Shown here one piece after another: positions 125-10,098 of a stretch of 15,619 nucleotides of DNA (its first letter is position 1; every line of letters begins with the position of its first letter). A program made the translations under genes and the position numbers. This DNA is from Candidatus Staskawiczbacteria bacterium RIFCSPHIGHO2_02_FULL_34_10 (lineage in GTDB: Bacteria > Patescibacteriota > Minisyncoccia > Minisyncoccales > Staskawiczbacteraceae): the NCBI GenBank assembly GCA_001821915.1, contig MHOR01000007.1, forward strand, positions 18,240 to 33,858, given 5' to 3'. The notes under the pieces are model-generated. The model was not told the origin of the DNA and ran no database searches. It was given only the letters and a program-made list of their open reading frames with translations.

Positions 125-814
125 ATGGAAAAACCTAAAAATCAAAAAGTAATTTTTGCGCTACCAGGAGAAATAACAATGACTGAAGTTATTTTTCAGA
201 TACTAAAAAATAATGGTTTAGAAGAAAGTATTCAAGAAGCATTTAATAGAGGCACTAATGGAAAGGATTCTCGACTTATAATAGTAAGAGATGCAGCAAT
301 AACTATTGCAGAAAAAAAAATACCTGAAAAAAAGTTAGTTGAGCTTTTAGAAAAACATTTGGAAACTAAAAAACATACTGCTGAAAAAATAGTAAGCGAT
401 ATAAAAGAAAAAATTATTCCCTATGCTAAAATAATTGATCTATCAGGGGAAAAAGTTAAAGAAGCGCCAAAAACTCAAAACCAAAAAGAAAATATTGAGT
501 ACGATAAAGAAGCTTTCAGAGAAGAACTGTTAAAAAAAATAAATGCTAATAGAAATATTCCTGCAGTAGATGAACCTGCCCGCAATGCTTCGCATAGCGA
601 TGCAGGCGGGGAAGAACCACCTATATCTAATGTTAAAAAAGTAGATATTCAAAACGTAGAAAAAAACGCAGAAAATATGCAAAGAGAAGGAAAAAATATT
701 ATTACAGAGGAAAGAAAAGAGCCTACCTTCACTAAAAGCTTAAGTGAGGTAGGAGGAGAAAAGCCACAAATACAAGAAAGTGCGCCAGATAAGTATAAAG
801 AACTAATTGAATGA
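125..814 (+). CDS. Hypothetical Lys/Glu-rich protein, 229 aa
   Basis: Long ORF in an AT-rich context, followed by a strong hairpin terminator. Highly charged, no transmembrane segment, and no family signature I can recognise. Confidence 0.5.
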   Translation: MEKPKNQKVIFALPGEITMTEVIFQILKNNGLEESIQEAFNRGTNGKDSRLIIVRDAAITIAEKKIPEKKLVELLEKHLETKKHTAEKIVSDIKEKIIPYAKIIDLSGEKVKEAPKTQNQKENIEYDKEAFREELLKKINANRNIPAVDEPARNASHSDAGGEEPPISNVKKVDIQNVEKNAENMQREGKNIITEERKEPTFTKSLSEVGGEKPQIQESAPDKYKELIE

Positions 815-829
815 TAGATTTATTTTCAC

Positions 830-875
830 AAAAAAAGAGGGTTGGACAGATGTCCAACCCTTTGTTTTATTTTTT
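830..875. terminator. Bidirectional rho-independent terminator between the convergent genes 125..814 (+) and 867..2090 (-)
   Basis: An A-run (830-836) is followed by a perfect 10-bp stem GGGTTGGACA (839-848), a 2-nt loop, TGTCCAACCC (851-860), then TTTGTTTTATTTTTT (861-875). Confidence 0.65.
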
Positions 876-2090
876 CTCCCCCTTTTCCTTTTGCTGTCTT
901 TCATATTCTTCTCTGGATTCTTTCATTTGATCTGCAACGCTTTTACCCCCGCTACCGGATTTTTTGCTTCCGCCAGAACCACCGCCTGATGAGTTTCCGC
1001 CATCTTCTTTAGCAGAAGTCATGGCCGCTGCGGCGCCAGCAATAGTGCCAATGATTGAGGCTACTATATTACTACCCTCCAAGGGCTTACCACCAGAAGT
1101 AATGTCAATGTTCTTCTGGTCGAAACTACCACCATCTTTCGACATCTCCCTATTACGTAGCCTGCTAAGCTCCTTTTCTTTCTCTTGATAAGCACCAGTA
1201 CCCATAAGGGCACACCTTGCTTTTTGGAGATCTCTCTTGTTTAAGGGGTTAAGGCCCATCCTTGTAACCTCTCCCTTAAACCACTCATCAAGCATGAGTT
1301 CAATGGTCCTGCCAATAATCCTGGCTTTAGCTTTGGCAATGCTTTCGGCGGCTTCTGCTTTTACTATAGCAGCGCCCTTTTCAGCTTGTGCCTCTAATTG
1401 GAGAGTCGCGATCAGCTCAAGATTTTTACCAACTGGCCCCGACACGTGGACATACTCAATCCTAAGGTAGGCCTCGCCAGTACCGGGTTTATTAGTTGTT
1501 AACGGATTATTGTCAAACAATCCGCACCTGCAAAGCAAGCTATCAGGTTTTTGCAATAGATCGTTTACCTTACCGCTTAGCTCTTCGTTTTTCAAGCCAC
1601 CCATTACATCGGTATAGTTGTACTGACCAAATACAGAAAACAAATCGGGAGAAAAAGCTCGCTCTATCCATTTTCTCAGCTCCTCTTCGTCATTAATCGG
1701 AACACCAGAAGCAATGATGGTATCAATTTGATCGTCGTCATCGGGTAGCCCTAAAAAAAAGGTGGCATCGATACCAAGCTTCTGCCAGTCCTTTGATCTG
1801 ACCTGCAACTGTGTCCCCGAAATCTCCCAACTAGGCTTGTTTTCATCTCCTTTATATACTTGTGGCAATTTTTTTTGAGGAATCCTAACCAATTTAATCC
1901 CCCAAAACCATGGCACAAAATGAAGTCCCGAACCAAACCGACCATTGCTACTAGTTAGCTTTTTCTTCTTCAGGCGGCCGAAATACTGAAGCTTGGCGAC
2001 CTCATCAGGATTAATGGTATTGCAAAAAGAAACGATTAGCCAAATCACCACCGCCAGAAACAAGAAACTAATCAAAATGAACATAAGCAT
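867..2090 (-). CDS. SPFH/band-7 (stomatin/flotillin-like) domain membrane protein with an N-terminal TM anchor and a Gly/Ser-rich C-terminal tail. The ORF track extends it to 2135, but the likely start is the ATG at 2088-2090, preceded by AGAGGA.
   Basis: The protein opens with an N-terminal TM helix (MLMFILISFLFLAVVIWLIVSF). Ala/Glu-rich coiled-coil stretches (LQLEAQAEKGAAIVKAEAAESIAKAKARIIG) are typical of SPFH C-terminal regions. A good SD sequence (AGAGGAAAAC) lies 6 nt before the internal Met, whereas the far-upstream Met has none. The gene is visibly GC-richer than all neighbouring genes. Confidence 0.5.
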   Translation of the reverse strand: MLMFILISFLFLAVVIWLIVSFCNTINPDEVAKLQYFGRLKKKKLTSSNGRFGSGLHFVPWFWGIKLVRIPQKKLPQVYKGDENKPSWEISGTQLQVRSKDWQKLGIDATFFLGLPDDDDQIDTIIASGVPINDEEELRKWIERAFSPDLFSVFGQYNYTDVMGGLKNEELSGKVNDLLQKPDSLLCRCGLFDNNPLTTNKPGTGEAYLRIEYVHVSGPVGKNLELIATLQLEAQAEKGAAIVKAEAAESIAKAKARIIGRTIELMLDEWFKGEVTRMGLNPLNKRDLQKARCALMGTGAYQEKEKELSRLRNREMSKDGGSFDQKNIDITSGGKPLEGSNIVASIIGTIAGAAAAMTSAKEDGGNSSGGGSGGSKKSGSGGKSVADQMKESREEYERQQKEKGEKK

Positions 2091-2114
2091 GTTTTCCTCT
2101 CTTCTGTGAATGTT

Positions 2115-2153
2115 TCTCGTTAAATAGTCCGCCACAAACGGAATTTAACGAGA
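2115..2153 (-). promoter_or_regulatory. Perfect 11-bp inverted repeat (TCTCGTTAAAT…17 nt…ATTTAACGAGA) in the 5' leader of the SPFH gene
   Basis: The arms at 2115-2125 and 2143-2153 are exact reverse complements, and the element lies about 25 nt upstream of the proposed ATG at 2090. It may be an operator or a leader hairpin. Confidence 0.3.
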
Positions 2154-2270
2154 AGAAGTTTTTAAAGGACTGTCCAATTGACTTAAAACAATCAAATCAA
2201 TAGGTTATCTTTCTTATATCATAGTAAAGTATTCTTGTCAACCACTTTTTATTAATATTAAATACTATGT

Positions 2271-2300
2271 TGTTTTGTTACTATTTTATGTGATATAATG
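2271..2300 (+). promoter_or_regulatory. Candidate sigma70-type promoter for the plus-strand 4HB/T4SS-like operon (TTGTTT -35, extended -10 TGaTATAAT)
   Basis: An extended -10 element TGATATAAT ends at 2300, with TTGTTT about 18 nt upstream. It sits in the divergent intergenic region between the SPFH gene and the first 4HB gene. Confidence 0.3.
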
Positions 2301-2323
2301 AATAGTGAATTATTAATTTCTAT

Positions 2324-2766
2324 TTTTGAATTTCGAATAAATTTAAAATGATTTAATTTGAAAATTTATGGACAAAAAGTATGATTTAGAAGAAAGAACG
2401 GGGAGTTTTGGAAAAAGTATAATTAATTTTTGTAAATACATCAAACAAGATGTAATAACTAAACCTCTTATAAGCCAACTTATTCGTAGCGGAACAAGTA
2501 TAGGGGCAAATTACATGGAAGCCAATGGCGCAAGTTCAAGAAAAGATTTTAAAAATAAAATACATATTTGTAAAAAAGAATCCCAAGAAACAATGCATTG
2601 GTTAAAAATGATAATAGAATACGAGCCAAATAAAAAAGAACAAGCTATGATACTATGTAAAGAAGCGCAAGAATTAACTTTTATATTCGGAAAAATTATT
2701 TCATCTATGAATTCTAAAAATTCGGCATTCTGATTTTAATCAAAATTCGAAATTAGAAATTCAAAA
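2324..2766 (+). mobile_element. IR-bounded cassette 1 carrying four-helix-bundle gene 4HB-1
   Basis: The left arm TTTTGAATTTCGAATAA (2324-2340) and the right arm ATTCGAAATT[AGAAATT]CAAAA (2745-2766) are inverted copies of each other, apart from a 7-nt tandem duplication in the right arm. The same arms recur at 9861-9941. Confidence 0.4.
2368..2733 (+). CDS. Four-helix-bundle protein (Avd-like / '23S rRNA intervening sequence protein' family), paralog 1, 121 aa
   Basis: The diagnostic central motif LIRSGTSIGANYMEANGASSRKDF (L-x-RS-x-xSI-xAN-x-EG/A… S-x-KDF) is present. The size, about 120 aa, fits the family. Confidence 0.75.
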   Translation: MDKKYDLEERTGSFGKSIINFCKYIKQDVITKPLISQLIRSGTSIGANYMEANGASSRKDFKNKIHICKKESQETMHWLKMIIEYEPNKKEQAMILCKEAQELTFIFGKIISSMNSKNSAF

Positions 2767-2773
2767 TTTAGAC

Positions 2774-3190
2774 GTGGCACAGTATCCCATACCACAATTT
2801 ATTGAAAAAGAAGGAAAAATTATTTCTTTTTTAACCTTTAGACAGTTTTTTTTACTTGCCGGAGGAGGGGGCGCCTGCCTTTTATTGTATTTTATTCTGC
2901 CATTTTTTCTTTTTGCGCTTTGCGCAATAATTATAATGTCTTTAGTCGCAATAATAGCTTTTTTAAGAGTTAATGGGTTTTCTATAATAACAATATTTTT
3001 AAACTTTGTTGGTTTTTTAACAGGCAGTAAAACTTATATATGGAAAAAAGAAGAATCTTCTTATCCATTTAAAGTGTTAAAACGCCAAGAAGTTAAAAGT
3101 ATAGAAGAAGTAAAAACACCAAGTTTTTTAATGAAATCAAAGGCTAGTAAATTAAATGAGATTAAAAAAATGGTAGAATTAAAGAAATAA
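2774..3190 (+). CDS. PrgI/VirB3-like small membrane protein of Gram-positive-type T4SS (GTG start), 138 aa
   Basis: A short N-terminal cytoplasmic segment (…PIPQFIEKEGKIISFLTFRQFFLL) is followed by a double-helix hydrophobic hairpin (AGGGGACLLLYFILPFFLFALCAIIIMSLVAIIAFL). The gene sits immediately upstream of the VirB4-family ATPase, as prgI does relative to prgJ. The assignment rests on architecture and context only. Confidence 0.4.
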   Translation: MAQYPIPQFIEKEGKIISFLTFRQFFLLAGGGGACLLLYFILPFFLFALCAIIIMSLVAIIAFLRVNGFSIITIFLNFVGFLTGSKTYIWKKEESSYPFKVLKRQEVKSIEEVKTPSFLMKSKASKLNEIKKMVELKK

Positions 3191-3210
3191 TTTAGCTAAA
3201 TTATTTCTTT
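3181..3210. repeat. Perfect 30-bp palindrome AAAGAAATAATTTAGCTAAATTATTTCTTT overlapping the stop codon of the PrgI-like gene
   Basis: The 30-mer is its own reverse complement, giving a 14-bp stem with a 2-nt loop. It lies 5 nt before the left IR arm of cassette 2. Confidence 0.5.
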
Positions 3211-3215
3211 AATTA

Positions 3216-3703
3216 GAATCTAGAATCTTGTATCTTGTAGTTGGAATAGAATAAAGAATTATGAATAATAATGAAAATAAAATAAGAAAATTTACAGATC
3301 TTTATGCTTGGCAAGAGGGACATAAGTTAGTTTTAATGGTTTATAAAAATACTGAACAATTTCCAGAAAAAGAGAGATATAGTATTGTAGACCAAATGAG
3401 AAGAGCTGTAGTTTCTTTGACTTCCAATATAGCAGAGGGATTTTCAAGGAGGTCATCAAAAGAGAAAAATAGATTTTATTGCATAGCTCAAGCATCACTA
3501 GTAGAATTATAAAATCAATTTATTATATCTCGCGATGTTGGTTATCTATCAGAAAATGATTTTAAAATAATTGCTGACCAATCAGTTATAGCCAATAAAC
3601 TTTTAAATGGACTCTTAAAAGCTACTAAAGATAAGAAATTTGAGTCTTAGATTCTAAATTCAAAATATTTAATTCAAGATACTAGATACAAGATTCAAGA
3701 TTC
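3216..3703 (+). mobile_element. IR-bounded cassette 2 carrying 4HB-2 (interrupted)
   Basis: GAATCTAGAATCTTGTATCT (3216-3235) and AGATACAAGATTCAAGATTC (3684-3703) are reverse complements at 19 of 20 positions. Together they bracket the 4HB ORF like the stem of an rRNA IVS. Confidence 0.45.
3261..3650 (+). pseudogene. Four-helix-bundle (Avd-like) gene, paralog 2, interrupted by an in-frame TAA at 3510-3512. The N-terminal part is the 83-aa ORF in the track; the family's C-terminal part continues in the same frame to a TAG at 3648-3650.
   Basis: The N-terminal part carries …LYAWQEGHKLVLMVYKNTEQFPEKERYSIVDQMRRAVVSLTSNIAEGFSRRSSKEKNRFYCIAQASLVEL, a classic family motif. After the TAA the same frame reads NQFIISRDVGYLSENDFKIIADQSVIANKLLNGLLKATKDKKFES*, the expected C-terminal helix. 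A single base change (CAA, GAA or AAA to TAA) would explain the interruption. Confidence 0.65.
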
Positions 3704-3710
3704 ATAGTTT

Positions 3711-4373
3711 ATGGAAACAGCAACACAAGAATTTTTAGAAATAAAGGATATTAGAGAAGGTGTTTTGATTTTAAAAAATAACAACATAAGAGGGGTTCTT
3801 ATGGTTTCTTCAACAAATTTTGCTTTAAAGTCTAATGAAGAGCAGTCTGTTATTGTTTATGCATATCAAAACTTTTTAAACTCGCTTGATTTTTCGTGCC
3901 AAATTGTAATTCAATCAAGAAATATTAATATTACTCCCTATTTAGACAGCATTAAAAATTTAGTGGATAAACAGCCCAATGACTTATTAAAAGCGCAAAC
4001 TTCTTCTTATGGCGAATTTATAAAAGAGTTAGTGCATGGGGATAATATTATGACAAAAAACTTTTATGTGGTTGTGCCATATACTTTAACAGAAATACTA
4101 GGGGTAAAAGCTGCTTTATCAGAAACCAGTTTTTTTAAAAGTTTTAGTAAAAGTAAGGATAAAAAACAGCAAATGAAAGACGAAGACTTTGAAAAATGCA
4201 AAAACCAGCTTTGGCAAAGAATGGAGTTTTTAGCTATGGGATTAAAAAGATGCGGCTTAGATGTTATTCCTTTAACAACCCCTGAATTAATAGAGTTATT
4301 TTGGTCTGTCCATCATCCAAGCGAAGCAGAGGTTGGGTATTATCCGGAAATATTGCCAGAACTCCTTAAATAA
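3711..4373 (+). CDS. virB4: N-terminal domain fragment of a VirB4/TraC/PrgJ-family T4SS ATPase, 220 aa, ending at the left edge of cassette 3
   Basis: There is no NTP-binding motif. The sequence resembles the N-terminal region of Gram-positive VirB4 homologues (…IKDIREGVLILKNNNIRGVLMVSSTNFALKSNEEQSVIVYAYQNFLNSLDFSCQIVIQSRNINITPYL…). The downstream 599-aa ORF begins where such proteins continue. The combined length (220 + 599 = 819 aa) matches a full VirB4. Confidence 0.45.
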   Translation: METATQEFLEIKDIREGVLILKNNNIRGVLMVSSTNFALKSNEEQSVIVYAYQNFLNSLDFSCQIVIQSRNINITPYLDSIKNLVDKQPNDLLKAQTSSYGEFIKELVHGDNIMTKNFYVVVPYTLTEILGVKAALSETSFFKSFSKSKDKKQQMKDEDFEKCKNQLWQRMEFLAMGLKRCGLDVIPLTTPELIELFWSVHHPSEAEVGYYPEILPELLK

Positions 4374-4846
4374 TATTAAATATTAAAAAGCAAAAAGCAA
4401 AATGACAAATTAAAATGGAAAATCAAAAAGATAGCAGTAAATTTAAGGTGGAATTTAAAAAAAGATTATATACATTTGTTTTAAAAATGATTGAATTTAT
4501 TGATAAGCTGCCAAATGATAATGTTTCAAGAAGGATAGGGGATCAATTATTAAGAAGTGGAACAAGTATTTTGGGTAATTATATTGAAGGACAATCAGCA
4601 AGTAGTAAAAAAGATTTCATTAATTTTTTTAATCATTCATTAAAATCAGCTAATGAAAGTAAATTGTGGTTTGCAATAATTAGAGACAGTAAAAGAACTA
4701 AAGACTATATTGTTGTTTGGTTTTTAAAAGAATTAGATGAAATAGCAAATATATTCGCATCCAGTATCATAACTCTTAAAGGGAAAAATAAACTTTGATT
4801 TTTGATATGTCATTTTTATATTTGATATTTAATTTTTGATATTATT
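4369..4846 (+). mobile_element. IR-bounded cassette 3 carrying 4HB-3, inserted between the two halves of the VirB4-family gene
   Basis: The left flank is AATAATATTAAATATTAAAAAGCAAAAAGCAAAATGACAAATTAAA. The right flank is TTTTTGATATGTCATTTTTATATTTGATATTTAATTTTTGATATTATT. The two are imperfect inverted copies that share TGTCATTTT/AAAATGACA, ATATTTAAT and AATAATAT/ATATTATT. The TAA stop of the N-terminal half and the ATG of the C-terminal half sit at the cassette edges. Confidence 0.4.
4415..4798 (+). CDS. Four-helix-bundle protein (Avd-like / 23S rRNA IVS protein family), paralog 3, 127 aa
   Basis: Carries the family motif …IGDQLLRSGTSILGNYIEGQSASSKKDFINFFNHSLKSANESKLWF…. Confidence 0.75.
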   Translation: MENQKDSSKFKVEFKKRLYTFVLKMIEFIDKLPNDNVSRRIGDQLLRSGTSILGNYIEGQSASSKKDFINFFNHSLKSANESKLWFAIIRDSKRTKDYIVVWFLKELDEIANIFASSIITLKGKNKL

Positions 4847-6646
4847 ATGAAGTTACCATTCTTCAATAAGAAGGACGACGAAATAGAAGATAAAATGTTT
4901 GTGGAGCAAAATATTGACGTAAAAGACATTATAGCTCCACCATACATTGGCATAACCCAAGATTATATAAAATTAGGGGATAAAATTGCCAAATCTTTTT
5001 TTATTTTTTCTTACCCAAGGTATTTAAACACTGGATGGCTTTCTCCTGTAATTAATTTGGACGTCCAAATGGATATATCTTTTTTTATACATCCTATTAA
5101 TAGTGAATTAATTTTAAAAAAATTAAGGTCTAAAATTACTATGGTATCTTCAGAATTAATGGAAAGGCAAGAAAAGGGCCTAATAAGAGACCCTGCTTTA
5201 GAAACTGGATATCAAGATATTGAAAACTTGCGCGATAAAATTATAACCGCTCAGGAAAGAATGTTTAGGTTTGGGCTTTATATAACTATTTACGAAGAAA
5301 CAGAAGAGAAAATCAAATCAATTGAAGTTAATTTAAGATCAATTTTTGAATCACGCCTAATTTATATAAAACCTTCTTTATTTAAACAAAAGGAAGGTTT
5401 TATTTCAGCTGTCCCGTACGGACTAGATTTAATAAATGTCCATGTGCCAATGGATACAGAACCATTATCAACCACATTTCCTTTCATTTCTTTTGATTTA
5501 AGTTCTAATGAAGGTATTTTATATGGAGTAAATAGGCATAATAATTCTCTTATTTTATTTGATAGATTTACATTAGAAAACTATAATTTAGTTGTTTTTG
5601 CTAAATCTGGATCTGGTAAATCATATGCAATAAAACTAGAAATTTTAAGATATTTAATGTGGGGAATTGACGTTATTGTTATTGACCCAGAAAACGAATA
5701 TGAATTTTTAGCTGATGGAATAGGGGGGAATTTCTTTAAAATATCTTTAAATTCAGATAATCACGTAAATCCTTTTGACTTGCCGCTGCCAGGGCCTGAT
5801 GATGACCCTGAAGATATTTTAAGATCTAACACTATAAACTTAGTTGGATTATTTAGGATAATGTTAGGGGGTTTAACAAGTGAAGAAGACAGTATTTTAG
5901 ACCAAGCCATAACAGAAACATATGCTATAAGAGATATAACCCCGCAATCCGATCCAAATACATGGCAAGAAAATATACCTTTAATGTCTAACTTTGAAGA
6001 AATTTTAGAAAATATAACCCAAGCAGAATCTTTGGTAAGACGCCTTAAAAAATATACAAGAGGAACTTTTTCTGGATTTTTCAACCAACGGTCAAACATA
6101 CAAATTGATAAAAGTTTTATAGTTTTTGGAATAAGAGATATGGAAGAGTCCTTAAGGCCTATTGCTCTTTTTATAGTAATGAGATATGTTTGGAACATAG
6201 TAAGAACAAACATAAAAAAAAGAATTTTGGTGGTTGATGAAGCTTGGTGGTTAATGCAATCAGAGGATGGCGCTTCATTTTTATTTGGTTTAATAAAAAG
6301 AGGCAGAAAATACTGGCTGGGAGTTACCACTATAACTCAAGACATTGAAGACTTTATGAAGTCTCCTTATGGAAAAGCTATTATTACAAACTCTTCACTG
6401 CAACTTTTATTAAAACAATCTCCCGCGGAAGTTGATATATTACAAAAAACATTTGACTTAACAGAACAAGAAAAGATGCTTTTACTGGAAGCATCTGTTG
6501 GAGAAGGGCTTTTCTTTGCTGGTAAAAAACATGTATATATTAGTATAAAAGCCAGCTATACTGAAGACCAAATAATAACCACTAATCCGGGAGAAGTTGA
6601 GAAGATAAAAGAAGCAAAAAGGAGATTAAAACAATCCACAAATTAG
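4847..6646 (+). CDS. virB4: VirB4/TraC/PrgJ-family T4SS ATPase, C-terminal 599 aa including the P-loop NTPase domain
   Basis: Walker A VVFAKSGSGKSYAIK. Walker B RILVVDEAWWL, with the DEAW motif typical of VirB4/TraC. The region before the P-loop (YPRYLNTGWLSPVINLDVQMDISFFIHPI…LRSKIT…ELMERQEKGLIRDPALETGYQDIENLRDKI…ERMFRFGLYITIY) matches the conserved VirB4 middle domain as I recall it. Confidence 0.7.
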   Translation: MKLPFFNKKDDEIEDKMFVEQNIDVKDIIAPPYIGITQDYIKLGDKIAKSFFIFSYPRYLNTGWLSPVINLDVQMDISFFIHPINSELILKKLRSKITMVSSELMERQEKGLIRDPALETGYQDIENLRDKIITAQERMFRFGLYITIYEETEEKIKSIEVNLRSIFESRLIYIKPSLFKQKEGFISAVPYGLDLINVHVPMDTEPLSTTFPFISFDLSSNEGILYGVNRHNNSLILFDRFTLENYNLVVFAKSGSGKSYAIKLEILRYLMWGIDVIVIDPENEYEFLADGIGGNFFKISLNSDNHVNPFDLPLPGPDDDPEDILRSNTINLVGLFRIMLGGLTSEEDSILDQAITETYAIRDITPQSDPNTWQENIPLMSNFEEILENITQAESLVRRLKKYTRGTFSGFFNQRSNIQIDKSFIVFGIRDMEESLRPIALFIVMRYVWNIVRTNIKKRILVVDEAWWLMQSEDGASFLFGLIKRGRKYWLGVTTITQDIEDFMKSPYGKAIITNSSLQLLLKQSPAEVDILQKTFDLTEQEKMLLLEASVGEGLFFAGKKHVYISIKASYTEDQIITTNPGEVEKIKEAKRRLKQSTN

Positions 6647-6680
6647 TAGTTTTTTAAAGAAATAGTGGTATAATAAACCT

Positions 6681-8192
6681 ATGTTTAAAAAATATAACCA
6701 CCTAATACTTTTTGTCAGCTTATTTGTCTTGGTATTTTTTGCTTTAACTAATATTCAGTCTGTTTTAGCTCTTGAATTAAATTATCCTACACTCCCAGCT
6801 CCATTTAATATTGGGTGGAATGACTGTTCTAGCTCGGTACCATCGCCTACAGGAAATTGTCCGACTTTAACTCAATATATTGCTTATATTTTTTATTTCG
6901 CAGTGGTAGTGGCTGGAATAATAGGCGTTTTATCTATAATTATATCCGGCTTTCAAATATTATTATATGCTGGCAATCCATCTGCAATAAGCGCCGCGAA
7001 AGAAAGAATTTTTGGCTCTGTTTTAGGAATAATTCTTTTAATGTTTTCTCTTGTGCTTTTGCAAACTATAAACCCGGCACTTGTAAATGTGACTCAATCA
7101 GAGTTACTGCTTCAACCTGGACTTTATTATAGGGGTGACAACCCCAATCCTGGACCTACCACCCCCTATGTATATAAACCGGCGTCCACACAATCATCTA
7201 ATGTATTAACCGATTTACCTGCAGGATTTTCACATCTTTATTATAAATGCAACCCGCCCGGCAAAGCTCTTTTAGTTTGGACATATAGTAGAATAACCTG
7301 GAATTTAGACTATGTCGCAAATGGAAATTCAAATGCAACAACATTTCGCATACCATGTGGCTCTTCAATGAGTATAAGTCTTGATTCTGTAATGTCTTTT
7401 TATACAGCGTCCGAAGAACCTGGTGTTTATTTCTTTTTAAAAACTGGATGTGAGGGCTCTAGTACTACTGTCTTGCAAGAAAGCGGCCATATACCTGATT
7501 TTAGTTATATATATACTGAATTAGAACCACCAGTACTTTCATTAAGAATCGTTAATGAGGGTCTAATTCAAAAATATGCAGTGATTTTAAATAAAGATTA
7601 TGAATTTAAGAAAGAATGCAGCGCGCCACTTGGAATATTTAGTGGCACAATTGTAACCCCTCCACTCGAAGAAGGTAATTGTATTAATGTGTTGCCTCCC
7701 GATAAAGATGGAAATATATTTAATCCTTTTTCTGCATATATTATAAAACAACACGTTCAAGAATATCCGTCTATTTATACCGCTACTTTTTACAGTGGAA
7801 ATTTAGAGGCTAAATTTGAAAAACCTAATATAAAACAATGGTACTCATACGAGGGGAATATGAATCTTATTTTCACAAATAGGTGGCAAGATTCATCGAG
7901 AGTACCTCTGGATGCTTGGTATGCTGACCAATCCAAATGTAAAAATATAGTTGGTGATTACACTTGTTTAAACTATATAGAAAATGATGGATTTTTCAAC
8001 ATTATCCTTTATAGTAGTAATGAAAACGCACCTAATCCTAGTAGAACTAGATCTTGTGAAGTTTTCTTTAGTGAAAATTTAATCGCTGATGACCTTGACC
8101 TTCACTCAGATTATAATAATGCAAGTTATATAAATCTTTTACAGGGAGGTAGAAGTTTATATAGAATGGATATTATCCCTTATCCTAAATAA
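6681..8192 (+). CDS. Secreted/membrane protein: a cleavable signal peptide, a VirB2/TrbC-like pilin module (two hydrophobic helices separated by a short polar turn), and a roughly 360-aa Cys-rich extracellular domain with a Pro/Gly linker
   Basis: The N-terminus is MFKKYNHLILFVSLFVLVFFALTNIQSVLA, followed by the helix pair TQYIAYIFYFAVVVAGIIGVLSIIISGFQILLYAGNP…KERIFGSVLGIILLMFSLVLLQTINPAL, which is organised like the T4SS pilin families of CPR bacteria. A linker PGLYYRGDNPNPGPTTP follows. The C-terminal region has at least 12 Cys and no recognisable catalytic motif. Confidence 0.4.
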   Translation: MFKKYNHLILFVSLFVLVFFALTNIQSVLALELNYPTLPAPFNIGWNDCSSSVPSPTGNCPTLTQYIAYIFYFAVVVAGIIGVLSIIISGFQILLYAGNPSAISAAKERIFGSVLGIILLMFSLVLLQTINPALVNVTQSELLLQPGLYYRGDNPNPGPTTPYVYKPASTQSSNVLTDLPAGFSHLYYKCNPPGKALLVWTYSRITWNLDYVANGNSNATTFRIPCGSSMSISLDSVMSFYTASEEPGVYFFLKTGCEGSSTTVLQESGHIPDFSYIYTELEPPVLSLRIVNEGLIQKYAVILNKDYEFKKECSAPLGIFSGTIVTPPLEEGNCINVLPPDKDGNIFNPFSAYIIKQHVQEYPSIYTATFYSGNLEAKFEKPNIKQWYSYEGNMNLIFTNRWQDSSRVPLDAWYADQSKCKNIVGDYTCLNYIENDGFFNIILYSSNENAPNPSRTRSCEVFFSENLIADDLDLHSDYNNASYINLLQGGRSLYRMDIIPYPK

Positions 8193-9831: not shown

Positions 9832-9860
9832 GTAAGCTAATTCTTAATTTCTAATTTCTA

Positions 9861-9941
9861 ATTTTGAATAAATTCTAAATGATTTAATTTTAAAAACGTG
9901 TTTCTAAAATTTAAAATTCTTATTTTATTCGAAATTCAAAA
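9861..9941. repeat. ORF-less copy of the cassette arms (MITE-like or solo-IVS-like element) in the rpmH-rnpA spacer
   Basis: 9861-9890 matches 2330-2359, the left flank of cassette 1 in direct orientation, at 27 of 30 positions, including the exact 14-mer AAATGATTTAATTT. 9924-9941 is the exact reverse complement of 2324-2341, an 18 of 18 match. 9927-9941 matches the cassette 1 right arm ATTCGAAATT…CAAAA. Both arms are therefore present with only about 30 nt between them. Additional TAATTTC-type 7-nt tandem repeats lie at 9841-9868. Confidence 0.5.
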
Positions 9942-9963
9942 TTCTAAATTCGAATTTAAATTA

Positions 9964-10098
9964 CTATACCGATAACTTCTTTCTCCCTTTAGCCCTCCTT
10001 CTTTTAAGAACCTGTTCTCCTTTTTTAGTTTTTTTACGCACTAAAAAACCGTGTGTCCTTTTTCTTTTCTTCTTTTTTGGGTTATATGTAAAACTCAT
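9964..10098 (-). CDS. rpmH: 50S ribosomal protein L34, 44 aa (not in the supplied ORF track)
   Basis: The reverse complement translates to [44 protein letters not shown], which aligns convincingly with E. coli L34 (…[26 protein letters not shown]…). The ATG is at 10096-10098 and the stop is the complement of 9964-9966. Confidence 0.9.

Follow-up and report, generated by a model that had tools for sequence, protein, structure and literature searches.

A GC-rich SPFH/Band-7 gene with a fixed place at the type IV secretion locus of Patescibacteria

Near dnaA, Patescibacteria (Candidate Phyla Radiation [CPR]) carry an MPF-FATA-like type IV secretion system (T4SS) locus, which was surveyed by Quinonero-Coronel et al. 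(2025, PMC12102498). According to this survey, VirB8 is missing in most Patescibacteria classes, and the only Patescibacteria species tested cannot grow epibiotically without its T4SS-like system (as cited there). Here we analyze a stretch of 15,619 nucleotides (nt) from Candidatus Staskawiczbacteria bacterium RIFCSPHIGHO2_02_FULL_34_10, referred to below as the window, whose gene set and neighborhood match that locus and which holds, at 867..2090 on the minus strand, a GC-rich gene for a divergent SPFH/Band-7 membrane protein. The surveyed locus and ours have in common VirB4, a TrsD/TraC-like protein, PrgI/VirB3, VirB6/TrbL, a VirB2-like pilin, and a LysM-M23 VirB1 analog, together with KsgA, RnpA, RpmH, DnaA, and DnaN; an SPFH/Band_7 component is absent from those parts of the survey's text and supplements that were available to us. 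Within the T4SS locus, the SPFH gene is the only one on the opposite strand, and it differs from the others in composition and in translation signals.

SPFH scaffolds such as HflK/HflC (the FtsH cage), QmcA (stomatin-like and paired with NfeD, YbbJ), the flotillins (YqiK and FloA/FloT), the prohibitins, and the erlins share with the window protein an N-terminal anchor, an alpha/beta SPFH domain, and a long coiled-coil helix. In HflK/C, stomatin, and flotillin, this architecture gives rise to rings or cages in which 12 to more than 24 subunits come together. The window protein departs from the known families in its identity to solved SPFH proteins (just 12 to 17%), in an extra C-terminal hydrophobic helix followed by a Gly/Ser-rich charged tail, and in that its gene is tied to T4SS genes in the genomic contexts that we fetched.

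At the level of nucleotides, the gene resembles islands of horizontal transfer as described in the Lawrence-Ochman amelioration framework, with which it shares a sharp step in GC content and in GC at third codon positions (GC3) at the gene boundaries as well as atypical codon usage. It also resembles genes under selection for genic G+C, as a 2012 PNAS study by Raghavan, Kelkar, and Ochman reportedly described for Escherichia coli, where GC-richer synonymous variants are said to raise mRNA levels and fitness; the window gene is likewise GC enriched and has maximal expression signals. In that work, however, the force is weak and genome-wide, whereas here a single gene has kept its GC3 about 25 points higher than that of its genome over deep divergence. 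Stem-loops at the 5' terminus stabilize mRNAs such as ompA and aprE, and the window gene likewise has a leader with a hairpin only a few nucleotides away from its predicted 5' end. In fourU and ROSE thermometers and in translational riboswitches, the leader sequesters the Shine-Dalgarno (SD) sequence; in the window leader, the predicted pairing partners of the SD are U-rich CCUUU or CUUUY tracts. It differs from those leaders in matching no Rfam family and in that the SD pairing is a minimum-energy prediction, while its helices are backed by covariation.

The high GC content of the gene turned out to be a property of its family, shared by 11 of 12 lineages, and the gene holds the same genomic position in every lineage with a readable context. 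We think it probable, with clear reservations, that the gene is a vertically inherited unit of the T4SS locus, that its GC content is kept high mainly by selection on the mRNA, and that its product is a scaffold of the secretion machine. Neither the fixed place of such a gene at the T4SS locus, nor the gene-specific GC and SD anomaly, nor the leader RNA was found described in the literature searched or in Rfam.

Conserved position and predicted fold

The SPFH family appears from sequence searches to be small and isolated. A word-indexed search of 5.8 billion proteins returned only nine homologs, with identities of 39 to 100%, and an exhaustive profile search of 1.84 billion representatives returned 159 clusters at E<=1e-3; degenerate peptide-pattern scans of genome and metagenome collections yielded one and four loci, mostly duplicates of loci in the sample. 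DNA was fetched across the similarity range for L001 (the window's own genome), L007, L010, L012, L013, L015, L017, L018/L020, L022, L023, L024, L025, and L027, and synteny was counted over the 12 fetched lineages whose contigs keep a neighboring gene, L028 and P0098 (the latter a 1.3-kb contig) having no neighboring genes.

The distribution is not patchy, as the SPFH gene lies in the same slot in 12 of the 12 lineages, in each of them convergent with a small conserved gene, hypS, which encodes 140 to 230 amino acids (aa). In the window, hypS (125..814, plus strand) encodes a predicted small soluble partner of 229 aa. Wherever the contig reaches far enough, a divergent PrgI/VirB3 gene is found on one flank, with TraC/TrsD-like, VirB4, and pilin-domain genes beyond it; on the other side, hypS is followed by genes for a TrbL/VirB6-like membrane protein (650 to 970 aa), KsgA, and a LysM-M23 hydrolase. 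The TrbL/VirB6-like gene of the window's own locus lies outside the window, and the TrbL and TrbL_3 Pfam matches were obtained on the orthologs in L013 and L023. The rest of the T4SS-like cluster, as assigned with Pfam, occupies 2774..8192 on the plus strand, divergent from the SPFH gene, and comprises PrgI/VirB3-like (2774-3190), TraC/TrsD-like (3711-4373), VirB4-like ATPase (4847-6646), and T4SS-pilin-domain (6681-8192) genes; the window also encodes dnaA, dnaN, rnpA, yidC, jag, and a class A penicillin-binding protein. Every family member with a readable context has this same T4SS context.

The gene itself encodes 407 aa from an ATG at 2090, which is preferred over an upstream GTG at 2135 that falls within the leader hairpin. 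That the product is SPFH/Band-7-like, as the original prediction had it, is borne out by Pfam, in which Band_7 (PF01145) matches residues 25 to 181 with 29.5 bits against a cutoff of 23.6, and by structure prediction; precomputed PF01145 matches are also present on eight of the nine close homologs. The AlphaFold2 model, built from a 44-sequence family alignment (mean predicted local distance difference test score, 85.7), has a predicted N-terminal transmembrane helix (residues 2 to 22), then a beta-rich SPFH domain, a 60-residue coiled-coil helix (218 to 277), further helices, and a second hydrophobic helix at about 343 to 359 inside a low-confidence Gly/Ser-rich segment that ends in a charged tail. 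All aligned family members have one or two N-terminal hydrophobic segments, and the alignments distinguish two types of C-terminal module within the family. Foldseek searches of the PDB with the model retrieved HflK/C, stomatin, erlin, prohibitin, QmcA, and flotillin (E values of 2e-10 to 1e-6, probability of 1.00) and also the major vault protein, the complete E-value range being 2e-10 to 1e-4; at the sequence level, the family profile matched HflC best among PDB entries (E of 7e-5).

NCBIfam and PADLOC gave no match for the protein, PHROGs gave only an uninformative unnamed phage "lipoprotein" family, and these three and Pfam showed no homolog of it among the named VirB, Prg, Trs, and Tra components. 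The fetched neighborhoods contain no NfeD, FtsH, or second hflK/C-type gene, so that the stomatin-NfeD and HflKC-FtsH operon types were not encountered; the tandem paralog present in L007 belongs to the same SPFH family and is not an hflK/C-type second gene. Judged by sequence and by the predicted structure, the protein would represent a new divergent SPFH subfamily.

Base composition and expression signals

The window as a whole has 29.7% GC, and a sliding-window scan shows a plateau of 41 to 48% GC at about 750 to 2100, with 22 to 35% on both flanks. Among the 15 genes counted in the window, the SPFH gene has a GC fraction of 0.444 and a GC3 of 0.439, and the other 14, which served as the comparison set, have GC fractions of 0.220 to 0.341 (mean, 0.283) and GC3 values of 0.101 to 0.258 (mean, 0.185). 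The gene thus lies outside the gene-to-gene spread of its neighbors (z scores of 4.8 in GC and 6.4 in GC3; chi-square of GC3 counts, 137.6, p=9e-32), and the original description of a GC-rich gene in AT-rich surroundings stands, with the small correction that its GC content is 44%, at the bottom of the 45 to 50% first proposed. About half of the GC excess is due to amino acids (Gly and Ala) and about half to synonymous choice, since recoding the protein with the neighbors' codon usage still gives 36.2% GC and a GC3 of 0.22, compared with the observed values of about 44.5% and 0.44.

The synonymous half is a loss of A at third positions, with T at third positions unchanged relative to the neighbors. 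The largest shift concerns AAG, GAG, and CAG (G-ending fraction of 0.46 versus 0.14 in the neighbors); at four-fold sites A gives way to C, which rises from 0.12 to 0.29, and at two-fold sites the NNC fraction is 0.39 versus 0.19. Of the three codons that had been singled out from the sequence, GCC and GGC are indeed enriched three- to fivefold (27 per 1,000 versus 5.4 and 8.5 in the neighbors), but CCG, with two codons, shows no meaningful enrichment. The elevation of GC3 is even along the gene, at 0.30 to 0.57 per 40-codon block.

The same contrast recurs among the relatives. SPFH GC3 is 0.44 against 0.15 to 0.26 in the neighboring genes at the window's own locus (L001), 0.51 (0.48 in the tandem paralog) against 0.21 to 0.31 in L007, 0.44 against 0.16 to 0.35 in L010, 0.50 against 0.26 to 0.32 in L017, 0.51 against 0.20 to 0.41 in L018, 0.40 against 0.13 to 0.39 in L022, 0.45 against 0.20 to 0.39 in L023, 0.47 against 0.19 to 0.25 in L024, 0.53 against 0.17 to 0.22 in L025, and 0.50 against 0.19 to 0.30 in L027; L028 has an SPFH GC3 of 0.58. 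In L012 (42% GC; SPFH GC3 of 0.44) and L013 (44.5% GC; 0.56), the gene does not stand out from its GC-richer genome. Overall, the SPFH orthologs have 44 to 52% GC, with GC3 values of 0.40 to 0.56 in 11 of the 12 lineages, at host loci of 30 to 45% GC. The proteins of L024, L025, and L027 are only about 25 to 30% identical to the window protein, and yet their genes are GC rich. At conserved residues, four-fold sites are identical between orthologs in 31.6% of cases, versus 26.3% expected at saturation. Because synonymous sites are thus nearly saturated, the composition must be maintained and is no relic, and because synonymous turnover is almost complete, the composition of a donor would be erased over such divergence, as it would already have been in the T4SS genes if those were once imported.

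The partner gene shows an anomaly opposite to that of the SPFH gene. In hypS (window 125-814; L012 4554-5108; L013 2448-3035), third positions are AT rich even in GC-richer genomes, with GC3 values of 0.16 to 0.30 even where the neighbors have 0.45 to 0.50.

Upstream of the SPFH gene, a sigma-70 promoter of the extended -10 type is predicted at 2213..2241 (minus strand) from reading of the sequence and from conservation in the family: TTGACA at 2241-2236, a 17-nt spacer ending in TGa, and TATAAG at 2218-2213, with a predicted transcription start near 2206. TTGACA-N14-TGnTA(T/A)AAT is found upstream of all 13 family genes with a complete upstream region, and a generic promoter scan had missed the window promoter because the last base of its -10 element is G.

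Between the predicted start and the coding sequence lies a structured 5' leader RNA of about 115 nt (2091..2206, minus strand). Hairpin 1 (2201-2177) directly follows the predicted transcription start; it is followed by a conserved single-stranded motif, CCUUUAAAAA, at 2168-2159 (family consensus, CCUUUGACAA) and by a nested hairpin 2 at 2152-2116 on the minus strand, with arms CUCGUUAAAU...AUUUAACGAG and an inner UCCG/CGGA stem, which is the inverted repeat noticed in the leader from the outset. The RNAalifold consensus comprises three helices with 22 pairs, 19 of which show compensatory changes on both sides; 87.9% of cells are paired versus 72.9% in shuffles, none of 500 shuffles reached the observed value, and the covariation score is 0.635 versus at most 0.234 with slid partners. 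A covariance model of the leader (R1) scores 92.7 bits on the window at 2206-2088 (minus strand), and its matches within 196 kb of related sequence are confined to leaders of the SPFH gene family. At E<=1 it recovers the closer half of the family but not its most remote leaders, those of L023, L024, L025, and L027; by eye, the CUUGUA loop and the CCUUGA(C/A)AA motif can still be recognized in L024 and L027. Rfam gave no match in the leader (2088-2260) at E<=1, and a scan of 600-2500 on both strands at the same threshold gave only weak, subthreshold matches at the terminator and none in the leader or coding region. In many minimum-energy folds, the partner of the SD is either CCUUU or a proximal CUUUY tract; sequestration of the SD by the leader may therefore occur, this being a prediction of such folds without covariation support.

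In L007, the leaders of the two tandem SPFH paralogs (8049-8179 and 9885-10003) share a segment of about 72 nt, running from the CUUUGACAA motif to the SD in their 3' part, that is 100% identical. The two paralogs are highly diverged, and the second protein shares only about 22% identity with the window protein; the shared segment suggests gene conversion or strong coregulation.

The SD itself, AGAGGA at 2100-2095, is the only SD-like motif upstream of any of the 15 window genes, in agreement with the initial remark that most native genes here lack one. Across the related loci, 13 of 14 family genes have an SD compared with 5 of 82 neighbors (about 6%), and these genomes (the window and the loci L001, L007, L010, L012, L013, L023, and L027) are thus essentially without SD sites. 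Transcription would end at a bidirectional intrinsic terminator shared with the convergent hypS (830..866 on both strands, hairpin 836-863), GGGTTGGACA-TCT-GTCCAACCC, whose stems of 10 to 12 bp and T-runs on both strands confirm the terminator originally proposed there. A GGGTTrGAC hairpin followed by a T-run is found after most of the 14 family genes, and L023 and L024 have a different GC-rich hairpin, then a T-run.

The coding RNA was tested for folding by summing minimum free energies over 120-nt windows and comparing them with those of 40 within-gene synonymous-codon shuffles, which keep the protein and the codon usage. It is more stable than the shuffles in 14 of 14 family genes (mean z=-2.83), versus a mean z of -0.60 in 16 neighboring genes (Mann-Whitney p=3e-5).

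Other GC-rich genes occur in the related loci. They are monocistronic, have GC3 values of 0.39 to 0.67, and encode predicted membrane or coiled-coil proteins: an 8xMP gene (PF24838) in L010 (17678-18094), hyp131 in L013 (5149-5544), hyp271 in L012 (7709-8524), and a gene in L022 (18484-19362). All four come with a promoter close to consensus and a terminator of their own, and an SD precedes most of them. Such outliers are overrepresented among the few genes that have an SD: two of the five SD-bearing neighbors are L012 hyp271 and L013 hyp131, and a third outlier, L010 8xMP, has GAAGGAGG before an upstream in-frame ATG. These genes may form a class with the SPFH gene.

Explanations for the deviant composition

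Taken together, the GC-rich island would be one self-contained transcription unit and a fixed part of the Patescibacteria MPF-FATA-type T4SS locus near the replication origin, with a composition that appears to be actively maintained as a family-wide property and that bears no apparent trace of foreign origin. Selection on the mRNA is its most likely cause: a near-consensus promoter, a putatively protective 5' hairpin, a structured leader, a strong SD where most other genes have none, a G/C-enriched coding sequence with excess folding, and a strong terminator would yield a stable, SD-dependent, high-output transcript, and we infer high expression and mRNA stability to be what is selected. The leader structure may make the SD necessary and perhaps serve to regulate it, such that translation may be switchable. 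By analogy with HflK/C, stomatin, QmcA, and flotillin, the protein would most likely assemble into a ring or cage anchored in the membrane, where it would act as the scaffold or gate of a membrane machine, and its invariant neighbors point to the T4SS as that machine, which suggests a physical or functional coupling of the two. High output would fit a many-copy protein, given the 12 to more than 24 subunits of SPFH rings.

Several observations weigh against this interpretation. In L015, the SPFH GC3 is 0.31, the GC3 excess being lost while the promoter, the leader, and the SD are kept, and GC-richness is therefore not strictly required. The window's own SPFH gene shows a modest excess of folding (z=-1.27), and a preference for AAG, GAG, and CAG differs from the classic signature of translational selection. 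Divergences among the lineages are almost star-like, which makes the congruence test weak for several genes (Spearman rho of 0.26 for PrgI and -0.04 for KsgA); the comparison of pairwise-identity trees is informative only for hypS and VirB4. Because the published survey (PMC12102498), in the parts available to us, lists no SPFH component, the link of the gene to the T4SS is one of synteny. Selection on the mRNA nevertheless explains the full set of conserved signals better than do recombination, codon-level control, or a second function in the same DNA.

A bolder version goes further, and we hold it tentatively, as a possibility less likely than its negation. It proposes two expression regimes in these genomes, one AT rich and SD-less, to which nearly all genes would belong, and the other GC rich and SD led, with a hitherto undescribed SD-masking leader RNA, an SPFH mRNA selected for structure and stability that depend on its G+C content, and an SPFH cage that is an unrecognized structural or assembly component of the T4SS. 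The second regime may then comprise strongly promoted monocistronic membrane-protein genes, of which the SPFH gene would be the most conserved member, and the cage might take the place of the absent VirB8 or core-ring proteins.

Recombination offers a different cause, to which we give a rather small share of belief. The gene would be a hotspot of exchange or orthologous replacement, in which GC-biased gene conversion or GC-richer imports keep GC3 high. An SPFH GC content of about 44 to 52% whatever the host GC is what a shared allele pool would produce; L010 and L022 are discordant in a way that exchange would also produce, being 51% identical in SPFH, 36% in hypS, and 31% in VirB6; and the two C-terminal module types and the identical leader segment of the L007 tandem paralogs, suggestive of gene conversion, fit the same picture. 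However, the flanking PrgI and hypS genes evolve equally fast and would share the local recombination, and yet they are AT rich, and SPFH pairwise divergence tracks that of hypS (Spearman rho of 0.76) and VirB4 (rho of 0.75). Recombination also leaves the conserved SD, promoter, and leader and the excess of mRNA folding over shuffles unexplained.

Control at the level of codons is about as improbable as recombination. Here, G- or C-ending codons would be optimal in a highly expressed gene, or else rare codons would slow elongation and let the scaffold insert into the membrane and oligomerize. The shift is indeed synonymous and codon specific, the G-ending bias of Lys, Glu, and Gln persists in the GC-richer L012 and L013, and a strong promoter with an SD would fit high expression. 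Against it stand the excess structure over shuffles that preserve codon usage, which goes beyond what codon choice alone would give, and the fact that low-GC bacteria are not generally known to have G-ending codons for Lys, Glu, and Gln as their optimal ones.

Recent acquisition from a higher-GC donor, with the gene not yet drifted to the host composition, was the original prediction, and we regard it as very improbable. It would account for the strong compositional and codon deviation and for a gene that comes with a promoter, SD, and terminator of its own in a window where no other gene has an SD. We reject it because the closest homologs recovered in the homolog search are of the same lineage and of similar GC content. 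Further against it, the gene occupies one slot throughout the fetched lineages with a neighboring gene and is GC rich down to about 27% identity; no higher-GC donor family outside the clade is visible among the homologs and clusters retrieved from the 5.8 billion proteins and 1.84 billion representatives; the window contains no tRNA gene and, by its open reading frame (ORF) list and Pfam, no integrase-like ORF; and repeats flanking the GC-rich island occur at chance level only. In contrast to islands of horizontal transfer, the SPFH gene is present in all syntenic relatives and GC rich in 11 of the 12 lineages, without mobility genes or insertion scars, and the deviation persists despite saturated synonymous sites. 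Six contigs from several groundwater samples encode the exact protein, and all six are identical across the gene; between L004, a population variant, and window 634-3811, there are 15 single-nucleotide polymorphisms in 3.2 kb and none in the 1.27-kb SPFH gene, a weakly informative comparison, as the look-up was conditioned on an identical protein.

A second function in the same DNA that constrains third positions, be it an antisense gene that overlaps the coding sequence or a structured RNA embedded in it, might be expected in that GC-rich segments of AT-rich genomes are often structural RNAs, antisense ORFs of 66 to 77 aa are present, and the coding RNA folds more stably than expected, but it is equally improbable, given that GC3 is raised evenly along the gene, that the Rfam scan gave nothing on either strand beyond the weak terminator matches, and that the antisense ORFs are short, broken up, and spread over different frames, for which reason an overlapping gene is rejected. 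An extreme variant of the two-regime proposal, in which the bacterial expression signals are "universal" because the cassette, once passed on through the T4SS, is expressed in the host cell, is judged very unlikely.

Other window features and implications

Three 23S_rRNA_IVP genes (four-helix-bundle and Avd-like, by Pfam) are interspersed among the T4SS genes at 2368-2733, 3261-3512, and 4415-4798. They vary in number and position among the relatives, with none in L007 and four in L010, and L012 has GIY-YIG and PDDEXK_3 genes at equivalent positions; the IVP genes behave like small mobile insertions. The 83-aa ORF of the second one (window 3261-3649) stops at an in-frame TAA (3510-3512), and its frame runs about 45 codons further, resembling the remainder of a full-length four-helix-bundle protein, which indicates either a pseudogene or stop codon read-through. 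AT-rich repeats with a 7-nt period (TTTGAAT/TTCTAAT/TTCGAAT) form inverted arms around the first IVP gene (2315-2338 and 2745-2768) and recur at 3213-3240, 3650-3706, and 9842-9961, including beside rnpA and rpmH; 24 matches to the repeat units were found versus 9.9 expected. A perfect 38-nt palindrome (19+19 nt, without a loop) at 3177-3214 overlaps the stop codon of the PrgI-like gene. Between dnaA and dnaN, the segment 11701-12000 has 12.7% GC and probably serves as the unwinding element of oriC. Transcription of the SPFH gene runs away from this putative origin, codirectional with replication, and that of the T4SS genes is head-on.

The SPFH gene provides a counterexample to the reading of GC and codon usage islands as horizontal transfer, and its position about 25 GC3 points above an AT-rich genome across saturating divergence points to a strong gene-specific force on nucleotide composition. 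The contrast in SD use and the covarying leader, which has no Rfam counterpart, offer a handle on translation initiation and posttranscriptional control in the CPR. For the T4SS of these bacteria, in which VirB8 and core components are missing, the predicted SPFH scaffold would be a concrete new candidate component.

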